Below are positions 9,363-41,213 of a stretch of 44,644 nt of DNA, piece by piece. A program made the translations under genes and the position numbers. The notes under the pieces were generated by a model. It saw nothing but the letters and a program-made list of their open reading frames with translations, was not told the DNA's origin and did no database searches. Position 1 is the first letter of the stretch; the number at the start of each line of letters is the position of its first letter. Origin of the DNA: a virus (taxonomy: Duplodnaviria > Heunggongvirae > Uroviricota > Caudoviricetes); IMG/VR virus record IMGVR_UViG_2563366806_000004, positions 1 to 44,644 of that record; one strand, given 5' to 3'.

Positions 9363-9575
9363 TTATTCGCGAGCTTTGAGCATGGCATCAGCAATAAAGT
9401 AGGCATCATCTGCTAATTCTTTGTACTGTGGTGAATTCTGTCCACCGCCAAAGGAATGTCCGTCCCATCTGCGCACTATTGCTGCCATAGCCTTAGCAGC
9501 GAAGTAATCACGTAATGTCGCATCACTTGCCATTTCTGGGCGTTTGATATCTGCTTCATAAAACTCGCACATCAT
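9363..9575 (-). CDS. Hypothetical protein
   Basis: 70-aa ORF, stop/start overlap with the upstream gene. Confidence 0.4.
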   Translation of the reverse strand: MMCEFYEADIKRPEMASDATLRDYFAAKAMAAIVRRWDGHSFGGGQNSPQYKELADDAYFIADAMLKARE

Positions 9576-9850
9576 TCACCTCCCAGAGCCTTGCTGATTG
9601 CTGCCTTGGCTCGTTTGTATTCGGTTAACTCTCTGCACCCTTCGTCATGCTCGTAAAGGAAGACAAGCTCTTGCAGTGCTTCAAGCAAATCAGGAGCTGC
9701 TGCTATCAGTAGCGCATCCTCCCTTTCATTTCTTGTTGCTGCTTCAATGTATGTGTCACCAATCGTCACACCATGGAACGTAGTCATCATCTCGTTGACG
9801 TTTCTAACCGTGTACTTCCATTTACCAGGCGTACCCTTAAACTCTTTCAT
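9572..9850 (-). CDS. Hypothetical protein
   Basis: 92 aa from ATG at 9850 with upstream GAGGTGGA; track ORF starts at GTG 9856. Confidence 0.45.
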   Translation of the reverse strand: MKEFKGTPGKWKYTVRNVNEMMTTFHGVTIGDTYIEAATRNEREDALLIAAAPDLLEALQELVFLYEHDEGCRELTEYKRAKAAISKALGGE

Positions 9851-9857
9851 ATCCACC

Positions 9858-9898
9858 TCTGTTGTTTATGCCAAAAATAAAGGCCGACTATGCGGCCT
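9858..9898. repeat. Direct repeat copy 1 (~40 bp, contains terminator hairpin)
   Basis: TCTGTTGTTTATGCCAAAAATAAAGGCCGACTATGCGGCCT, repeated with two differences at 10401..10439. Confidence 0.8.
9871..9898 (-). terminator. Intrinsic terminator after the 156-aa gene
   Basis: Stem AGGCCG/CGGCCT with loop ACTATG, followed on the minus strand by TTATTTTTGG. Confidence 0.55.
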
Positions 9899-10367
9899 AG
9901 TAGAATACCCAATTTTCTGTTTCTTGGTTGTGTCCAAAGTTATATTCAATATCTGGTGTTGATGTATCAATATTCTTCATCCCATCAACAAGAGTTGATA
10001 CAACAGCCAAATCTTGTTTGATTCTCATCAAATGGTATTTCTTCCGGCGCAATAAACTTTCAATGGCAAGTTTCTTCGTCGGGAACGCAAAAGATCTTTC
10101 TGCATTTTTTGCTACTTTCTTAATTGCATATCTATTTCTCCTTTGTTTCCATTCCTGTAACCACTGATTTGGTGCTGGTTTAAAATTAACAATCCAATGC
10201 GCAGGAACCAACCATGCATAATGCTCTGTCTGATGAAAAGCTATATATTGAAGTGCGAATATTTTGATTCCATCTTCTTCAACTGTCGCTTGGAATCTCC
10301 AGAAAACAGGCATTCCATCATGTTCAGTTTCTGATTCAGGAAAAGGTACGCTCCATGATTTTGTCAT
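9897..10367 (-). CDS. Hypothetical protein encoded by an AT-rich cassette
   Basis: 156-aa ORF with AT-rich codon usage unlike neighbours; own leader TTATTTGAGGTGAGATATG and own terminator; no recognisable motif. Confidence 0.55.
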   Translation of the reverse strand: MTKSWSVPFPESETEHDGMPVFWRFQATVEEDGIKIFALQYIAFHQTEHYAWLVPAHWIVNFKPAPNQWLQEWKQRRNRYAIKKVAKNAERSFAFPTKKLAIESLLRRKKYHLMRIKQDLAVVSTLVDGMKNIDTSTPDIEYNFGHNQETENWVFY

Positions 10368-17348: not shown

Positions 17349-17524
17349 TTGACCAAAATCGAAGTTACGAACAAGGAAGTGTCGAGCGAGCTTTAACGTG
17401 CGCTAACTGCGGTCAGAAGCTGCATGTGCTGGAAGTTCACGTGTGTGAGCGTTGTATATATGAATGCTTAAATATGGTGGAACATAATGAGAAATATAAG
17501 CAACATAGACGAATTAAGAAATAA
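17345..17524 (+). pseudogene. ninF: ninF, 5' fragment interrupted by an HNH-gene insertion
   Basis: GTG-start ORF encodes ...ESVERALTCANCGQKLHVLEVHVCE as in lambda NinF, then diverges into AT-rich inserted sequence and stops at 17522..17524. Confidence 0.65.
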
Positions 17525-17993
17525 ATTATCATATGATGATGTTTTAGGTGTACTTAGATGGAAAGTGTCTCCTTCTAATAATGTTAAGGTTGGCAGTGTT
17601 GCTGGTTACATTAGGAGTGATGGTTATAGGATGTTAACTATCGATGGTGTAATTACTTATGCTCACCACGTTATATGGATGATAAATAATGGTGAGATTC
17701 CATTAGGGTATAAAATTGATCATATAAATGGAGTAAGGTCAGATAATAGGCTATCTAATCTTCGATTGGTTACACACCAACAGAATGCACAGAACCAAAA
17801 GAGAAAAATAACAAATTCGTCAGGAGTGACTGGAGTATATTTCAATAAAGAGAGATGTAAGTGGATTGCGAATATATGCGTAGATGGGCGCACCAAATAT
17901 CTTGGAATATTTGCTAGCATCATTGACGCTATTACAGAAAGGAAGAGGGCAGAAAAAGAACTGGGTTTTCATGAAAACCATGGTAGACCATAA
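17487..17993 (+). CDS. HNH homing-endonuclease-like protein inserted in ninF
   Basis: 168-aa ORF; AT-rich; RBS GGTGGA; resembles free-standing HNH homing endonucleases; lambda-like ninF sequence is found on both sides. Confidence 0.65.
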   Translation: MRNISNIDELRNKLSYDDVLGVLRWKVSPSNNVKVGSVAGYIRSDGYRMLTIDGVITYAHHVIWMINNGEIPLGYKIDHINGVRSDNRLSNLRLVTHQQNAQNQKRKITNSSGVTGVYFNKERCKWIANICVDGRTKYLGIFASIIDAITERKRAEKELGFHENHGRP

Positions 17994-18054
17994 CTGCGCA
18001 GAACTGATGAGCGATCCGAATAGCTCAATGTACGAGGAAGAAGACGATGAGTGA
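17980..18054 (+). pseudogene. ninF: ninF, 3' remnant
   Basis: Encodes (MVDHN)CAELMSDPNSSMYEEEDDE matching the lambda NinF C-terminus; out of frame with the 5' fragment. Confidence 0.6.
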
Positions 18055-18556
18055 TGTTAAAGAAAAAGATATCCCCGGCTTTGAGGGTATATATAAAGTA
18101 ACTGAAAATGGAGACATCATTTCATGCCGTAAATCAAAAAAATTATCTCATGGCATTAAACCAGGAGGATATGCATTTGTCGGTCTGTATCCAGGTGGCG
18201 GGAAAAGACCATCATATAAAATGGTTCACAGAATTGTTGCAGAAGTATTTATTGATAACCCAGATGGCAAACCGGAAGTTAATCACAAGGATGGAAATAA
18301 ACTTAATAATAAAGTTGAAAATCTTGAGTGGGTAACGCGAACAGAAAATGCGAAACATGGATTTGATTCCGGATTGCTTGTTCATGGGTTTAATCATCAC
18401 TTCTGCAAACTAACGCCAGAACAAGTGAAATCAATATATAAATCAAAAGGCAAATACAGAGATATAGCCAAAGAATTTGGTGTTTGTGCGCAGACAGTGT
18501 GCAACATAAAAAACAAATCAGCGTACCGACGTTTTTTGGAGGGGATTGATGTTTAG
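18047..18556 (+). CDS. Second HNH homing-endonuclease-like protein
   Basis: 169-aa ORF; GFEGIYKVTENGDIIS N-terminal motif and HKDGNKLNNKVENLEWVTRTEN HNH core; AT-rich. Confidence 0.65.
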   Translation: MSDVKEKDIPGFEGIYKVTENGDIISCRKSKKLSHGIKPGGYAFVGLYPGGGKRPSYKMVHRIVAEVFIDNPDGKPEVNHKDGNKLNNKVENLEWVTRTENAKHGFDSGLLVHGFNHHFCKLTPEQVKSIYKSKGKYRDIAKEFGVCAQTVCNIKNKSAYRRFLEGIDV

Positions 18557-18824
18557 AAGCAAAAAATGGCTTCAGGCAGTCAGGGATATTGAATTTTGCG
18601 TTCTTTGCGGAAGATACGGAGTTCAGGCCGCTCATAGAAATGAAGGGAAGGGGGTTGGGATTAAAGTAGATGATTGCCTTACTGCTGCGCTATGTGTTGA
18701 TTGTCATTCAAGAATTGATAATGGGAGAGATATGAGCAGGGAAGAGCGAAGGGCTGAAATGGATCGGGCCATTGTGCTTACCCTTAAAAAATTGGTTAAC
18801 AATGGGAGGGTGTTTGTCCAATGA
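18546..18824 (+). CDS. DUF1364-like small Cys/His protein (YbcO-like)
   Basis: 92-aa ORF with CVLCG...AAH...CVDCH metal-binding pattern, immediately upstream of rusA as in DLP12-type prophages. Confidence 0.4.
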   Translation: MMFRSKKWLQAVRDIEFCVLCGRYGVQAAHRNEGKGVGIKVDDCLTAALCVDCHSRIDNGRDMSREERRAEMDRAIVLTLKKLVNNGRVFVQ

Positions 18825-34906: not shown

Positions 34907-37163
34907 CGCAGATACGATTAAAGATTTCCTTGTTTCGCTGGGATTCGATATCGATCAGGCTGGCGCTAATAAGTTTGAAGCCGTGCTGAAAGGCGTTACA
35001 GCTAACGTTCTGAAGGTCGGCGCGGTGGTGGAAGGCGCAGCGCTGAGCATTGTCGGATTTACCACTCAGATCGCGAACGGTCTGGATAAAATTTACTGGG
35101 CATCCCAGCGGACGGGGGCCAGTGTCCAGGGCATCAAAGCGCTGGGATACGCCGCATCGCAAACCGGTGCCAGCGCCGAGTCGGCTATGTCCTCCCTCGA
35201 AGGGCTGGCCGGTTTCATGCGTAGCAATCCGGGCGCGGAAGGCTTCCTGAACCGCCTGGGCGTCCAGACTCGCGATGCCAGCGGAAAGATGCGTGATACT
35301 GCGGCCATCTTTACTGGCGTTGGGCAAAAGCTCAACAACATGCCGTATTACCGCGCGAAACAATACGCGCAGATGCTTGGCATCGATGAAAACACGCTGA
35401 TGGCGATGCGGCGCGGCATGAATGGCTTTACCGCCGATTACCAGTCGATGCTGCAAAAGACAGGGTTCAACGCTGATAAAGCGGCTGTTCAGTCCAACAA
35501 ATTCATGACGTCCATGCGCGGGCTTACGTCGCTGTTCGGCATCATGCGGGACAAGATCGGCTCAAACCTCGCTGGTGGCCTGGCTGGTTCGCTGGACAGC
35601 CTGCGGCGGCGCATCCTCGACAATTTCCCGAAGATTGAAGAGACGCTGACCAGAGTTATTAAAGGCGTGATCTGGCTTGCGAACGCATTCACGAGAATGG
35701 CGTGGCGGCTGATACAGGGCGCTGGCTCTGTCATCGACTGGTGGAAGCGTCTTGACGATGGCAGTAAAAATCTGCTGAAAATATTCGGTGCTCTACTTGT
35801 CGCATGGCGTCTGCTTAATTCTGCGTTCCTGAAATCCCCGATTGGAATTATCACCACGCTGATTCTGGCGATCGGATTACTCTATGACGATTATCAGACG
35901 TGGAAAGAAGGCGGTAAAAGCCTGATTGACTGGTCCAAGTGGGAGCCTGCAATAGAAAAGGCGAAAAAGGCAATTCTCTGGCTGCGCGATAAGCTTCTGG
36001 GGCTGAAAGATTCTGTTGGTGGATGGCAGAACTCGCTGGAAATTTTGGCTACTTTCATCGCTGGGGTATGGGTAACAAAAGTATTGGGAGCATTCGCAAA
36101 AATATCCGGTCTTCCGATACCTCCATGGCTTAAATTATGGGGAGCGTATGCTGGTTACCTGGTTTCAGATCGTGAAAACATAAAAGCCAGTGCTAAATCA
36201 TCTTTGGACTATACCAAAAGGAACATTGGTGATGCTCTTGCTACGGTTGGCATCAAAACCGACCTTGGGCGAAAAGATGTTAGCGAGGTAAGAGAATGGC
36301 CCGCATGGATGGATTGGCTGCATGGTGGCCCAGGTAAGATTATTCGTCAGGCGCAAAGCAATGGCGTCGTTTATGGCGATAATGTTCAGCCTGACATTCC
36401 CGGGGCGGAACAGCATGTTCGTAGTAATGAAATTGCCCCGCATGAAAGAGATGAAATAAAAAACCGTCAGCAGGCTGCTAATGGTTATCTTGAAAAAATC
36501 TCAGACGGGATTGCCAAAATCGGTAATTTATTTTTCTCCCCGGCTGGAGCTGCTGAAATCTCTCCAAATATATCGGGTGACCCCTCCCAGTTTGCGCAAT
36601 CAGTCAAACGTCCACAGGCCACAGCCCAGGGCAAAGTATTGCTCGACTGGATGGGGCCAATGTTCAATAAACTTGAGTCGCTTTATCAACTTCCAGCTGG
36701 TCTATTGAAAAGTGTGGCGATAACCGAGTCAGGTGGTAACCAGTTCGCCATGTCCGGCGCAGGCGCGAAAGGTCTGTTTCAGTTTATGGATGGTACGGCG
36801 CGCGACATGGGCCTTCGCGGAAACGATGTATTCGACCCGCAAAAGTCAGCTCAGGCCGCAGCTAAGTACCTCAGCCAGCTGTTGCGGCAGAACGGCGGAG
36901 ACCTTAGCAAAGCACTGGCATCATATAACTGGGGGATCGGGAATGTTAAGCGCTATGGCATGGGGTTAATGCCGCAGGAAACGCGTAACTACATTCCGAA
37001 AGTAATGAGCAACATGCCCACCAGCGCCCCGGTGATTCAGCAGGAAACGAATATTAACATCCACGGCGTTTCCGATCCGCGCGAGGCTGCCCGTTTGACT
37101 GTTGATCGTCAAAAGGGCGTGAATTCACAGTTAACCCAGCAACTCCCCGCAGGACCGAGATAA
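34896..37163 (+). CDS. Tail tape measure protein with C-terminal lytic transglycosylase (SLT) domain
   Basis: 755-aa ORF after the frameshifted chaperone; C-terminal AITESGGNQFAMSGAGAKGLFQFMDGTARDMGL...YNWGIGNV resembles the SLT domain. Confidence 0.65.
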   Translation: MSGNADTIKDFLVSLGFDIDQAGANKFEAVLKGVTANVLKVGAVVEGAALSIVGFTTQIANGLDKIYWASQRTGASVQGIKALGYAASQTGASAESAMSSLEGLAGFMRSNPGAEGFLNRLGVQTRDASGKMRDTAAIFTGVGQKLNNMPYYRAKQYAQMLGIDENTLMAMRRGMNGFTADYQSMLQKTGFNADKAAVQSNKFMTSMRGLTSLFGIMRDKIGSNLAGGLAGSLDSLRRRILDNFPKIEETLTRVIKGVIWLANAFTRMAWRLIQGAGSVIDWWKRLDDGSKNLLKIFGALLVAWRLLNSAFLKSPIGIITTLILAIGLLYDDYQTWKEGGKSLIDWSKWEPAIEKAKKAILWLRDKLLGLKDSVGGWQNSLEILATFIAGVWVTKVLGAFAKISGLPIPPWLKLWGAYAGYLVSDRENIKASAKSSLDYTKRNIGDALATVGIKTDLGRKDVSEVREWPAWMDWLHGGPGKIIRQAQSNGVVYGDNVQPDIPGAEQHVRSNEIAPHERDEIKNRQQAANGYLEKISDGIAKIGNLFFSPAGAAEISPNISGDPSQFAQSVKRPQATAQGKVLLDWMGPMFNKLESLYQLPAGLLKSVAITESGGNQFAMSGAGAKGLFQFMDGTARDMGLRGNDVFDPQKSAQAAAKYLSQLLRQNGGDLSKALASYNWGIGNVKRYGMGLMPQETRNYIPKVMSNMPTSAPVIQQETNINIHGVSDPREAARLTVDRQKGVNSQLTQQLPAGPR

Positions 37164-37777
37164 TGGATATTTTATCAGCGATTTTTCGCCAGCAATCCCG
37201 GCGAATTGGAATATTAATCCCCAGCGTGGTTGTTTCTGAAAAGCATTCTGATGCGCTCGAAATTACTGAGCACCCGGTGGAGAAGCCAACAACGAATAGC
37301 GCTTCGGGCTTCATCGCCGATCATGCGTATAAGCGCCCAAGCGAAGTCACGATGGAATGCGGCTTCGCTGGTGGCGGTTCATTGCTGGACTTCATTGATA
37401 CATCGTCAATCGGCCTCAGCGCCGGACTTAGCCCGAAAGAGACATACCAAAAGCTGCTGGATATGCAGCTTGAGCGCGTACCGTTCGATGTGGTTACCGG
37501 GAAGAGGGTGTACACCAATATGCTGGTGCGTGCCATTGAGGTGACGACCGATAAAACCAGCGAGAACGTGCTGAACTGCACGCTTACCCTGCGTGAAGTG
37601 ATCATGTCGCAGACATTTAAAAAGCAGGTCGCAGATAAGTCGGATATGCAGGATGGTGTCAGTACGTCAGCAGTGCAGAATTCCGGGACGAAATCGGTTA
37701 CATCGGTGAATGATTCGCTCTTGGGGCAGGTCACGGGTGCGAGTAAGGTTGGCGGACGTTATCAGTTACCTTTCTAA
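37163..37777 (+). CDS. Putative tail/baseplate protein
   Basis: 204-aa ORF, ATGA overlap with the tape measure gene. Confidence 0.4.
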   Translation: MDILSAIFRQQSRRIGILIPSVVVSEKHSDALEITEHPVEKPTTNSASGFIADHAYKRPSEVTMECGFAGGGSLLDFIDTSSIGLSAGLSPKETYQKLLDMQLERVPFDVVTGKRVYTNMLVRAIEVTTDKTSENVLNCTLTLREVIMSQTFKKQVADKSDMQDGVSTSAVQNSGTKSVTSVNDSLLGQVTGASKVGGRYQLPF

Positions 37778-37787
37778 TGAGGTTTAT

Positions 37788-38093
37788 ATGCAGTTTAACG
37801 AAATACCGCTTTCTCCTGACAATCAGCAGTTCCGCGTTTTGCTGGGCAATACCACCTATACGCTCAGGATCATCTGGCGCGATGCGGCTGGCTGGATCAT
37901 GGACGTGATGGATAGCGGCGGTGCTGCGCTTCTTTCTGGCGTACCTCTACTGACCGGCGTGAACCTTTTACGACAATTTCCACAGCTTGGCATTGATGGT
38001 GCGCTGGTGGTGGCTACCGATAAGGGGGCACCAGACGAACCCACCAAAACCAACCTCGGCACATACAGCCACCTTATTTTCGTACAGGAGTAG
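37788..38093 (+). CDS. Putative tail/baseplate protein
   Basis: 101 aa from ATG 37788 with RBS upstream (track ORF begins at 37710). Confidence 0.4.
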   Translation: MQFNEIPLSPDNQQFRVLLGNTTYTLRIIWRDAAGWIMDVMDSGGAALLSGVPLLTGVNLLRQFPQLGIDGALVVATDKGAPDEPTKTNLGTYSHLIFVQE

Positions 38094-38095
38094 AA

Positions 38096-39157
38096 ATGTC
38101 TCTTAACTGGATGCGCCATTTTGAGCTGCAACTGTTGGACCAGAACGGGCAGGGCGTTTCCCTGTCTGACTTTAAGGTCACGTTCCAGATCGAGTGGGCA
38201 GACACACGCTGGCCGCGCGTGGCGAACGTGAAAATTTACAACCTTTCGACCGATACCACGAACAAGATACTGGGGCAGGAGTTTGCAAAAATTCGCATCA
38301 TTGCCGGGTATGACGGTATTGCGCCGGATGTTGATGCGAGCCAGGTTGGTGTCGCCCGGGAGATTTCACCAGACCAGGTAGGGCAGGTGAACGGTCAGAA
38401 CTACGGCCTGATATTTGACGGTGATATTCGCTTCACCGTCACCGGGAAGGACAACATTACGGATTCCTGGGTGCTGATTCAGGCCATCAGTAACCACGAA
38501 GCGTTCCTCTACGCGACTACCATCACCACGCTTGCCGCTGGCTATACCGTTGCGGATCTGCACCGGGCGACGATGCAGGATTTCAACGCGTTCGGCGTGA
38601 CGCAGGGCATTACCGGCGACTTTCCTGATACTGTGTTTCCTCGTGGCCGCGCGATTTACTCATCCACCCGTAACGTGATGGACAATATTGCTGCGCAGTG
38701 CAAAGCGACATGGCAGTTAGTGGATGGGCAGGTGCAGATGGTGCCGGAGGATAAATACATTCACGAAGCCATCGTGCTGAATGCCGATACTGGCCTGATC
38801 GGTATGCCGCAACAAACGATGGGCGGCGGAGTAAACGTGCGGTGCCTGATAAACCCAAACATCCGTATTAATGGTCTTATCCAGCTCGATCAGGCTTCGG
38901 TGTACCGCGCCGCGCTCGGCAATAGCGAAATCGCACAGTCGCCCGGGCGTATCACCGAAACAGAAGAGAACGGCAACCGTGTGCTGACCGGCACGACGTC
39001 ACAGGCTGCCAGCATTGCGACGGATGGCGTTTATATCGTCAAAGCTATCGACTATACTGGCGACACCAGAGGTCAGGCGTGGTACATGGATTTGATGTGT
39101 TTTGCGCGTGGCAGCCGCGATTTGCAGAGTAACGCATCACTTAACCGGACGTTTTAA
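38096..39157 (+). CDS. Putative baseplate hub-like protein
   Basis: 353-aa ORF in tail operon. Confidence 0.4.
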   Translation: MSLNWMRHFELQLLDQNGQGVSLSDFKVTFQIEWADTRWPRVANVKIYNLSTDTTNKILGQEFAKIRIIAGYDGIAPDVDASQVGVAREISPDQVGQVNGQNYGLIFDGDIRFTVTGKDNITDSWVLIQAISNHEAFLYATTITTLAAGYTVADLHRATMQDFNAFGVTQGITGDFPDTVFPRGRAIYSSTRNVMDNIAAQCKATWQLVDGQVQMVPEDKYIHEAIVLNADTGLIGMPQQTMGGGVNVRCLINPNIRINGLIQLDQASVYRAALGNSEIAQSPGRITETEENGNRVLTGTTSQAASIATDGVYIVKAIDYTGDTRGQAWYMDLMCFARGSRDLQSNASLNRTF

Positions 39158-39160
39158 AAA

Positions 39161-39511
39161 ATGAAAAAACTCATCCTGATGATTGCTTGCAGCTCTTTTG
39201 TCTTGGCGGGCGTGGCTCATGCTGATTCCCAGTGTGGGCCTTTCCACTTGGGCACGAGCCCGACAAATGATGGATGGGCACGCATTAACGGTGCGAAGCC
39301 TGAAAGTCAGAAGGTAACGTTCCTTAAGCAAAAAGAAGACTACGAGAACATTAAGATGGAATGGCGCATGGCTACTGACCAGCCTGGAAGATGGGTTGGT
39401 CTTGAGTACATCAAGCGCAACGGCAAAGCCATTCTCAACGCACAGTGGTTGCAAGCCAGCATGGATGCGCCGCGTCAGTATGCAACATACGACTGCGTGA
39501 AGGTGAAATGA
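39161..39511 (+). CDS. Secreted small protein (accessory gene inside the baseplate operon)
   Basis: 116-aa ORF with cleavable signal peptide MKKLILMIACSSFVLAGVAHA-DS; two Cys in mature part; no structural-protein features. Confidence 0.55.
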   Translation: MKKLILMIACSSFVLAGVAHADSQCGPFHLGTSPTNDGWARINGAKPESQKVTFLKQKEDYENIKMEWRMATDQPGRWVGLEYIKRNGKAILNAQWLQASMDAPRQYATYDCVKVK

Positions 39512-39540
39512 TGATCCGCATCCTTAAACATCAATAATCG

Positions 39541-39583
39541 TTGATCTCGCGTTTTTATTATGCACTAATCTGTACATGTACAG
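39541..39583 (+). promoter_or_regulatory. Putative promoter and palindromic operator of the toxin-antitoxin operon
   Basis: Perfect 14-bp palindrome CTGTACATGTACAG at 39570..39583 overlapping candidate -10 TAATCT (39566..39571) with -35 TTGATC (39541..39546). Confidence 0.5.
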
Positions 39584-39593
39584 AGAGGGTGCC

Positions 39594-40007
39594 ATGAAAA
39601 TCATTACTTACACGCAAATGCGATCGGATTTATCTGCAACGCTGGACTGTTTACGCTCTGGTGAAAGCGTCACAGTTACGCAGCGCGGAAAGCCCGACCT
39701 TGTCATCAGTGCAAAATCAGTTGATGAAATCGCTTCCGCAGATGAGGTAAAAACATCTGCGAAAACAATAGACACGCATCTTGCGCAATTAATTGCATCG
39801 AATTTGTCACCACAGATAACGGAGGGTGTCATGAAGCTTACTAAGCAATTGGATGCCCTTCTTCAGTCTGATGAGGCTCGCCAGACTATGATGAAGGCCA
39901 CTAATGCAGCAGTTGCTTTGCAGGGCGTGTCTGAGTCATTTATCAAAGCTCTGCAACATACTCAGACCAAGCATGCGGACATCATAAAAAAACTGGAAGA
40001 TAAGTAA
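39594..40007 (+). CDS. phd: Phd/YefM-like antitoxin with extended C-terminal region
   Basis: 137 aa from ATG 39594; N-terminal MKIITYTQMRSDLSATLDCLRSGESVTVTQRGKPDLVISAKSVDE resembles Phd/YefM; stop overlaps doc start. Confidence 0.6.
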   Translation: MKIITYTQMRSDLSATLDCLRSGESVTVTQRGKPDLVISAKSVDEIASADEVKTSAKTIDTHLAQLIASNLSPQITEGVMKLTKQLDALLQSDEARQTMMKATNAAVALQGVSESFIKALQHTQTKHADIIKKLEDK

Positions 40008-40414
40008 TGACTGAGATTACATTCCTTTCGGTAGATGAGGTCATCGCTATTCAGAAGAGCACATTGCCAAATAGCGGACAACCAGACCGGGGAAAACTCG
40101 AAGGTGCCCTCAATCGCGTCGATAACTTACGCATGTATGAAGGATGTGAGGATTTATTTAAATTTGCAGCTATGTACATGGTTGCGATAGCGAAGTCTCA
40201 CGCTTTTAATGACGCCAATAAGCGAACGGCTTTCCAGGCCGCCAGCGTGTTTTTGCTTTTGAATGGCTATGAACTGAATACCTCAATGGAGTTAGTCAAG
40301 CTGACCATCTTTGCTGCTACGGGAGAGGCCGACTGCGATAACACTGCTTTGGCGCTTAAACTTTTGTCAGATTATAAGAATGAGCTGCTGGCAGATACGA
40401 TAACTGGCTACTGA
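40007..40414 (+). CDS. doc: Doc (death-on-curing) Fic-family toxin
   Basis: 135-aa ORF; HAFNDANKRTAFQAASVFLLLNGYEL resembles the P1 Doc Fic-like motif (HIFNDANKRTALNSALLFLRRNG). Confidence 0.75.
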   Translation: MTEITFLSVDEVIAIQKSTLPNSGQPDRGKLEGALNRVDNLRMYEGCEDLFKFAAMYMVAIAKSHAFNDANKRTAFQAASVFLLLNGYELNTSMELVKLTIFAATGEADCDNTALALKLLSDYKNELLADTITGY

Positions 40415-40437
40415 TAGCAAAAAGTAAATTGTACACA

Positions 40438-40461
40438 ACCCGCCGCCGAGCGGGTTTTTTT
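40438..40461 (+). terminator. Intrinsic terminator after doc
   Basis: Stem ACCCGC/GCGGGT, loop CGCCGA, followed by TTTTTTT. Confidence 0.6.
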
Positions 40462-40472
40462 ATGGAGTTTTT

Positions 40473-41213
40473 ATGCCAATTCCAACTCAATCACAGATCG
40501 GCGGCGAGCAGCAGACCGCGCAGGCCATAGCCGATTCGGTGTCTACCCAGATGCGCGTAGCGATGCCAGGCATCATTCAGTCGTTCGATCCTGACGCTGT
40601 AACCTGCACAGTAGAAGTGGCGCTTCGCGGTATTGTTGGCGACGGCTCCACCGAATTAAAACCGCTGGTGGATGTTCCTGTCATCTTCCCGCGCGGCGGC
40701 GGCTGCACGCTGACCTTTCCGGTTAAAGAAGGCGACGAGTGCCTGCTGCTCTTTGCCGACCGTTGCATCGATTTCTGGTGGCAGAGCGGCGGCGTGCAGG
40801 AGACCGTCGACCCGCGCCAGCATGACTTATCTGATGCGTTCGCCATCGTTGGCCCACAGTCGCAAGCACGGAAAATCAGCGGTATCAGTACCAGCGCCGC
40901 GCAGCTGCGAACCGATGATGGTGCGGCGTTTGTAGAAGTCGCCGCAGGACATAACATCACCATTAAAACACCGGGCCAGCTTACAGCTACGGCTGAAGGT
41001 GGAACGACAATCACATCCCCGACTATCACGCTGAACGGCAACGTAACGATTAATGGCAACTTGTCTCAGGGAATGGGCGAAAGCGGCGGTACTGCGACGA
41101 TGCTTGGGCCGGTGACGGTAACGAATGACGTAACAGCTTCTGGTATCAGTGTCGCCACGCATAAACATGGCGGAGTACAGACTGGCGGGGGAACTACCGG
41201 AGGGCCGCAATAA
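40473..41213 (+). CDS. Baseplate central spike protein (Gp138 N-terminal-domain-like)
   Basis: 246-aa ORF; LVDVPVIFPRGGGCTLTFPVKEGDECLLLFADRCIDFWW resembles the Gp138_N domain; C-terminal Gly/Thr-rich repeats. Confidence 0.5.
   Translation: MPIPTQSQIGGEQQTAQAIADSVSTQMRVAMPGIIQSFDPDAVTCTVEVALRGIVGDGSTELKPLVDVPVIFPRGGGCTLTFPVKEGDECLLLFADRCIDFWWQSGGVQETVDPRQHDLSDAFAIVGPQSQARKISGISTSAAQLRTDDGAAFVEVAAGHNITIKTPGQLTATAEGGTTITSPTITLNGNVTINGNLSQGMGESGGTATMLGPVTVTNDVTASGISVATHKHGGVQTGGGTTGGPQ

Follow-up and report, generated by a model that had tools for sequence, protein, structure and literature searches.

A predicted exported protein family encoded directly after the baseplate hub gene, beside a cargo hotspot, in an enterobacterial myophage tail module

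Several phages encode small accessory proteins that act in the bacterial envelope, and these are the closest described systems for the gene considered here. Llp of phage T5 and Cor of phages phi80 and N15 are outer-membrane lipoproteins that inactivate the phage receptor FhuA. In phage P1, the periplasmic protein Sim stops the entry of superinfecting phage; Llp and Sim are both precedents for exclusion proteins. The Sp (spackle) protein of phage T4 is helical. Like Sim, it is a small periplasmic phage protein with a signal peptide that acts on incoming phage. Cor is classed among the proteins that inactivate a receptor, Sp and Imm are named as exclusion proteins, and Cor, Sp, Imm and SieA are precedents for exclusion from the periplasmic side (PMC11436027). 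A further comparison is offered by the classical morons, such as lambda lom and bor and gp15 of HK97, which are accessory non-structural genes inside a late structural operon. Morons are independent transcription units of deviating base composition (PMC3594210), and HK97 gp15 is a precedent from this class (PMC11364771, PMC3594210). The tail operons of temperate phages are known for such envelope-directed additions (lom, cor, HK97 gp15), all of which are independent units. The small gene described below has a predicted exported product and yet behaves as if it belonged to the core of a single, widespread tail module of enterobacteria: it directly adjoins the hub gene and is kept when no cargo is present, and still it is exchanged between near-identical modules.

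The window, by which we mean the whole stretch of 44,644 nucleotides that was analysed, is a lambdoid-regulated temperate myophage in E. coli. It carries a CI-type repressor, a replication protein O, a Q antiterminator, and a cassette of holin, endolysin and Rz. Positions 1-2489 hold a ybhC-like chromosomal gene, similar to pectinesterase genes, and after it a lambda-type integrase that has an arm-binding domain; from these two genes, the prophage presumably lies in or close to the lambda attachment region. Three consecutive HNH-endonuclease-like ORFs (17487-18824; 168, 169 and 92 aa) come right before RusA and the Q antiterminator.

The ORF list and the sequence bear out the exact boundaries that the initial annotation had given to the small gene, which encodes 116 amino acids between an ATG start and a TGA stop (Table 1). 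The setting in a baseplate operon was also read correctly. By Pfam and PHROG matches, the genes upstream encode a Dit-like protein, a plug like Pam3 gp18 and the hub, and those downstream a gpV-type spike, a sheath initiator, baseplate J, a gpI-like wedge protein and a tail fibre. As a side observation, the mechanically called ORF at 37710-38093 (127 aa) overlaps the Dit-like gene, and its Pam3 gp18-type plug domain begins at residue 30; its relatives are annotated at about 101 aa, so that the true start is probably the ATG at 37791.

Table 1. Positions of the small gene, its parts and its neighbours in the window.
Feature	Position	Strand	Basis or remark
Baseplate hub gene, 353 aa, upstream neighbour	38096..39157	+	PHROG 196 at 3e-84; Pfam E217_GP41
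Gene for the predicted exported small protein, PHROG 3443 family	39161..39511	+	ORF list and sequence; stop codon counted in
Predicted signal peptide, residues 1-21, MKKLILMIACSSFVLAGVAHA	39161..39223	+	Read from the sequence; n/h/c layout in 61/61 aligned homologues
Mature protein, predicted 8-stranded up-and-down beta-barrel	39224..39508	+	95 aa, 10.9 kDa, pI about 9, hydrophilic
Cys25 codon, invariant, first barrel strand	39233..39235	+	Column invariant in 61 sequences; residue retained by distant and fused relatives
Cys112 codon, invariant, last strand, proposed disulfide partner of Cys25	39494..39496	+	Invariant column; disulfide inferred
Variable cargo slot	39512..40472	+	Phd/Doc here; other genes or nothing in relatives
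Apparent promoter and operator of Phd/Doc	39541-39583	+	Promoter and palindrome read by eye
Phd/YefM antitoxin	39594-40007	+	Pfam and PHROG matches
Doc toxin	40007-40414	+	Pfam and PHROG matches
Strong terminator of Phd/Doc	40437-40456	+	Terminator call
gpV-type baseplate spike gene, downstream edge of the cargo slot	40473..41213	+	Pfam N-terminal spike domain 2.6e-41; GpV Apex motif

The protein begins with MKKLILMIACSSFVLAGVAHA, followed by DSQ, and thus shows a basic n-region, then a hydrophobic core of 14 residues, and an A-x-A motif for cleavage. A signal peptide for signal peptidase I is defined by a basic n-region, an h-region of about 7-15 residues and small residues at -3 and -1, and the small protein has all three (MKK, then LILMIACSSFVLAGV, then AHA before D). 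Cleavage is predicted between A21 and D22, after AHA21, and the precursor would be exported by Sec. A basic start, a hydrophobic core and an A-x-A|D-type end are kept in 61/61 aligned homologues while the residues themselves vary, which is the pattern expected of a signal peptide. The cleavable signal peptide that the initial annotation had proposed therefore has a typical Sec layout that is common to the alignment. "Secreted protein" is also the automatic UniProt name for members of the 90% cluster of the small protein. The earlier count of two cysteines holds for the mature protein, where C25 and C112 are the only ones and are invariant in the 61 aligned sequences, but the precursor has a third, C10, which is not conserved and falls within the signal peptide. 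C25 and C112 are also found in the most distant relatives recovered.

Two other readings of the envelope location were tried and rejected. The string MIAC (residues 7-10) could suggest a lipoprotein; it lies too near the N-terminus, and its cysteine is the non-conserved C10. The small protein lacks a conserved lipobox, [LVI][ASTVI][GAS]C, at the end of its signal peptide, and a lipobox-like string occurs in 5/61 of the aligned homologues. An outer-membrane beta-barrel is contradicted by a mature part of 95 hydrophilic residues (GRAVY -0.87, 25 charged) with several strands of just 3-6 residues and no C-terminal aromatic residue.

A homology search, one of the checks proposed with the initial annotation, placed the small protein in PHROG 3443, a family listed with unknown function (E = 7.2e-46; residues 3-116 on profile positions 3-114 of 115). 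With 112/115 profile positions covered, it is a full-length member. For this PHROG, no described function or structure and no paper was found. A word-indexed search gave 169 homologues at E <= 1e-3, every one of them named "hypothetical", and when 1.84 billion representatives were searched exhaustively with a profile, just 64 came up. Matches in very large multi-repeat proteins (632-2470 aa) were rejected: those checked against Pfam were Listeria-Bacteroides repeat or other surface-repeat proteins, and these together with the similar unchecked ones were set aside as composition or repeat artefacts. The family is small, and was seen here only in Enterobacterales. Searches of the small protein in Pfam, NCBIfam, PADLOC and PDB sequences gave nothing informative, Rfam and repeat scans of the region gave nothing relevant, and a literature search by phage names, locus tags and accession numbers returned nothing on it. 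The gene is retained in at least ten genera of Enterobacterales and is under strong purifying selection, with a dN/dS of 0.06-0.08 against two close alleles and similar values for neighbouring tail genes. Across the 61 aligned sequences 15 columns are invariant, and one stretch, R41-I-N-G-x-K-P-x-S-Q-K-x-T-F-L-K56, is nearly so, which suggests that the protein may recognise a conserved target.

AlphaFold2 confidently predicts the small protein as an 8-stranded streptavidin-like beta-barrel. The nearest fold type is that of the streptavidin-like 8-stranded meander barrels, which include the avidins, the C-terminal domains of D-aminopeptidase-type enzymes and PDB 5hal. The structural matches to the predicted barrel are generic and at the level of the fold only, and no homology to the avidin/streptavidin family beyond the common barrel topology was found. 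Barrels of this type often serve as binders or inhibitors, which may offer a hint of what the modelled protein does. In the strand order of the model, the first and last strands close the barrel and both carry the invariant cysteines; since the strands with C25 and C112 meet there, a Cys25-Cys112 disulfide that closes the barrel is plausible.

The coupling of the gene to the hub is tight. Its ATG begins 3 nt 3' of the hub stop codon, and the gap between hub stop and small gene start has a median of 0 nt and is <=12 nt in 29/31 loci, so that the two genes are probably co-transcribed and translationally coupled. With a GC content of 50.7% and a GC3 of 0.59, the small gene resembles the flanking tail genes (51-58% and 0.56-0.66); Phd/Doc is at 45%. 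One promoter-like site, sigma-70-like, lies upstream at 39030-39058. As an internal promoter for expression in the lysogen it was rejected: it coincides with the conserved hub motif DGVYIV..IDYTGDTRGQ, recurs in many relatives and persists in a phage that does not have the small gene. No promoter of its own could be shown for the small gene, the upstream site being this conserved hub peptide motif, and no terminator was called directly after it. Compared with a classical moron, the gene has neither a demonstrable promoter and terminator of its own with intergenic spacers nor a deviating base composition.

A very different picture is seen just downstream. After a 65-nt spacer the small ORF is followed by a Phd/YefM-Doc pair and then by the spike gene. 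By eye, the pair has a likely promoter (TTGATC-17-ACTAAT, 39541-39569) and a perfect 14-nt palindrome, CTGTACATGTACAG, at 39570-39583 as the probable operator; the true start of the antitoxin is probably the ATG at 39594 and not that at 39576. This self-contained unit (39541-40456) fits the definition of a moron and is the real moron of the locus. The distance from the small gene stop to the spike varies from 1 to 2348 nt among the loci examined, and what fills it varies as well: Phd/Doc here and in two E. coli strains, and elsewhere a zinc-ribbon membrane protein, a DUF4236 protein or several unknown proteins. The slot is a hotspot in the window and in L001-L009, L011, L012, L016 and L026-L048, and its contents differ even between near-identical phages; in three loci (L019, L032, L042) the slot is empty and the small gene is present. 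Many of the cargo proteins have signal peptides or membrane anchors; PADLOC gave no match among them save Doc, weakly. The initial annotation had thought the signal peptide and cysteines unexpected for a baseplate component and had suggested, among other roles, a lysogenic-conversion factor. An odd insertion or a classical moron for lysogenic conversion is not supported, as the gene is a constant of its lineage, abuts the hub, has the GC content of tail genes, is kept without cargo and has no promoter that could be shown. It is the constant left edge of a cargo and recombination hotspot and not a classical moron. The hub-spike junction is a previously unremarked hotspot for toxin-antitoxin units and for exported and membrane proteins, and could be mined for defence genes.

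It is worth noting that the two E. coli strains with the same Phd/Doc cargo, ABWA45 (L027) and ECONIH5 (L028), also have a closely similar tail module. Their element carries a TOPRIM/DUF927 primase, an Icd-like protein and a second integrase. In the stretch examined, the PGAP annotation includes neither a terminase nor a portal gene, and in ECONIH5 an IS5 copy has inserted there; the element may be a degraded or chimeric prophage. Further downstream there is a recombinase gene together with tail-fibre assembly genes in the opposite orientation, an arrangement suggestive of an invertible fibre segment.

The distribution of the small gene was followed in about 30 loci, taken from 20 phage records, E. 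coli prophages and 20 loci from species-representative genomes (Pantoea, Rahnella, Yersinia, Serratia, Erwinia, Klebsiella, Kosakonia, Trabulsiella, Phytobacter and others). Its presence in related tail modules, another check that had been proposed, proved to be a constant of this lineage: in the about 30 loci it lies directly 3' of the hub gene, and PHROG 3443 members in phages of Citrobacter, Klebsiella, Escherichia, Salmonella and Yersinia occupy the same site. Nearly all modules with a hub identity of >= 52% have it, with or without cargo. It is missing from phages that match in baseplate gene order but have more distant hubs. As an example, in Providencia phage PSTCR3 the gene is absent and hub and spike genes stand back to back, and in Hafnia phage yong1 and Burkholderia phage BgManors32 unrelated genes take its place. 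Outside the one tail-module lineage only a few orphans were found. These are stand-alone chromosomal homologues with 27-35% identity (L015 5001-5339, L018 5001-5342, L023 5001-5402), located beside a LysR regulator, in the vicinity of an Hcp gene and immediately behind fliE; within 5 kb of them, none of the tail proteins of this window had a match.

Some relatives at the same site are longer, with 287-299 aa, and consist of a lipoprotein signal, a helical domain and then the barrel. A lipobox is present in 9/12 of these, with T, A or V at the +2 residue. A +2 residue other than Asp after the lipobox means sorting to the outer membrane, and by this rule the fused relatives are predicted to be anchored there. 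Such versions are found in L012 (6001-6879) and in L043 and L046 (about 9400-10290), with an SGC lipobox. Their helical domain, of ~165 aa, has an invariant motif FYAAYHEYG and a cysteine pair; it was not found outside the fused form, and no structural neighbour was found for it.

The alleles of the small gene are exchanged between modules. Modules that agree to 96-99% in hub, spike, sheath initiator and baseplate J show only 65-75% identity in the small protein, and in the comparison with phage Omnitron the nucleotide identity drops from ~95% to ~60% precisely where the hub gene stops and rises again shortly before the spike. The central part of the tape measure (34896-37163, 755 aa) is the other poorly conserved stretch in this comparison. 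Diversifying selection as the cause of the allele divergence was rejected on the low dN/dS and the coincidence of the identity break with the gene borders, and the same two observations point to allele exchange by recombination and not to co-evolution with a structural partner. The pairwise divergence of the small protein goes with that of the hub (rho 0.69), and no co-variation with the tape measure (0.28), the spike (0.22) or the tail fibre (-0.07) was found. The link to the hub may be plain linkage.

Taken together, conserved export signals, fusions, orphans, absences and allele swaps make it very unlikely that the small protein is a building block of the baseplate. The initial annotation had already doubted this role on the basis of the signal peptide and the two cysteines, and the doubt is strengthened by the conservation of that peptide, the invariant cysteine pair, the lipoprotein fusions, the chromosomal orphans and the absence from distant phages. 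With high probability the small protein is an exported accessory protein outside the virion. By its sequence, it belongs to an uncharacterised, lineage-restricted family of predicted exported proteins that borders a cargo hotspot.

What such a protein might do is a harder question. The account that we prefer, which we hold tentatively and at somewhat short of an even chance as a whole, is a periplasmic non-virion barrel, made late along with the tail proteins, with a block of phage entry as the guess at its function. From the gene arrangement, the protein would be made from the late, Q-antiterminated transcript along with the baseplate proteins, and translational coupling to the hub would probably drive its synthesis. 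After export and removal of the signal peptide at Ala21, the 95-residue mature part would fold in the periplasm as an 8-stranded barrel with a Cys25-Cys112 disulfide. The barrel could then bind a conserved envelope component through its R-I-N-G-x-K-P-x-S-Q-K-x-T-F-L-K segment and, once bound, might act from the periplasm to keep the tails of related phages from penetrating or their DNA from entering. In this way the infected or lysogenic cell would be protected, and released progeny would be spared wasteful ejection into sister cells or debris.

The entry block itself is the favoured guess at the function, at well short of an even chance. Its surroundings count for it, since the adjacent slot is rich in exported and membrane cargo. 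By this analogy the small protein would be a soluble counterpart of T5 Llp, Cor of phi80 and N15, P1 Sim or T4 Sp. It shares with Llp and Cor that it is a small phage envelope protein encoded beside tail genes, and its rare fused relatives have a lipobox with a +2 residue other than Asp; in contrast to them, however, it appears from its sequence to be a soluble protein of the signal-peptidase-I type and not a lipoprotein, and its alleles do not track the tail fibre. Sp and Sim show no homology to it and lie outside baseplate operons, and Sp is helical where the small protein is predicted as a beta-barrel. No sequence or specific structural relation to Llp, Cor, Sim or Sp was found, and the literature yielded no report of an exclusion phenotype, a binding partner or expression for any family member. 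The initial annotation had also put forward receptor blocking. A blocker matched to the receptor of the fibre is contradicted by allele divergence that does not track the fibre (rho -0.07), and a general block of receptor or entry stays as conjecture. A late-only gene would be poorly placed to protect a lysogen; the constant presence and tight hub coupling could instead reflect a role in the lytic cycle of the phage itself. If the entry block is true, the small protein would represent an exclusion family that is both new and common in E. coli, Salmonella, Klebsiella, Serratia and their relatives, with a bearing on prophage competition and on host range in phage therapy.

A factor that benefits the host, or lysogenic conversion without a link to phage exclusion, is an unlikely alternative that deserves some weight. 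It could be an immunity-type protein in the periplasm that counters a toxin acting there (a bacteriocin or a type VI effector), or it could bind a small ligand and so alter the properties of the envelope. The stand-alone chromosomal homologues, one of them close to an Hcp gene, would fit, as would the accessory cargo collected by the neighbouring slot. However, no promoter was shown, the gene abuts the hub and has tail-gene composition, the fold matches are generic, and the family is found only in one tail-module lineage plus a few orphans. Rather improbable is a protein that regulates cell-wall breakdown from the periplasm during the cycle of the phage itself, for instance an inhibitor of the lytic transglycosylase domain of the tape measure, or an endolysin or spanin modulator that tunes lysis or prevents lysis from without. 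From the gene arrangement the protein would be co-expressed with the tail genes, and the tape measure does carry an SLT lytic transglycosylase domain (residues 589-689). The existence of small periplasmic beta-barrel lysozyme inhibitors (MliC/PliC) counts for such a role; the small protein showed neither a match to the MliC/PliC family fold nor its conserved inhibitory loop motif. T4 Sp is also a case in point, as it inhibits a tail lysozyme (PMC11436027). Against this stand the complete holin, endolysin and Rz cassette elsewhere in the window and the low co-variation with the tape measure (rho 0.28).

A virion or assembly component is very improbable. In this case either the hydrophobic N-terminus would not be a signal peptide and the protein would have a seat in the baseplate, or the periplasmic protein would attach to particles after lysis. 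Its constant presence in the lineage, its tight coupling to the hub gene and a divergence that correlates best with the hub (rho 0.69) would all suit a structural part. But cleavable-type signal peptides are conserved, with an h-region of only 14 residues, lipoprotein-fused versions occur at the same site, chromosomal orphans exist, alleles differ by 25-35% between modules with 96-99% identical hub and spike, and the gene is absent from PSTCR3 and yong1. The hub of this type does not require such a subunit, as PSTCR3 passes directly from hub to spike. The same conclusion comes from solved baseplates with this hub type, which need no such protein (PMC10329688, PMC11456595). [quoted passage not shown] No virion proteome for any phage carrying the small gene was found in the literature. 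A more specific version has only an outside chance: the protein would mature in the periplasm, with the signal peptide removed and the disulfide formed, meet the particles at lysis, and bind the hub/spike region to tune triggering or host range. If true, this would be an undescribed way of completing a tailed-phage virion, and would explain the constant presence, the hub coupling and the hub-linked divergence at once. Finally, the ORF might be in decay or without a function and simply travel with the tail operon, which would suit the want of a known function and of a Pfam family match; this can practically be dismissed given the purifying selection (dN/dS 0.06-0.08), the 15 invariant columns in 61 sequences and the retention in at least ten Enterobacterales genera.

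A comparable gene position is seen in E217 itself. Its gp42 (L049, 9595-10128) lies between the hub gp41 and the tail tip gp43, with its start on the hub stop codon and with no signal peptide, and it is not listed among the baseplate proteins built in the structure paper (PMC10329688). A non-structural gene at the hub-tip junction may be a wider habit of myophages with simple baseplates.
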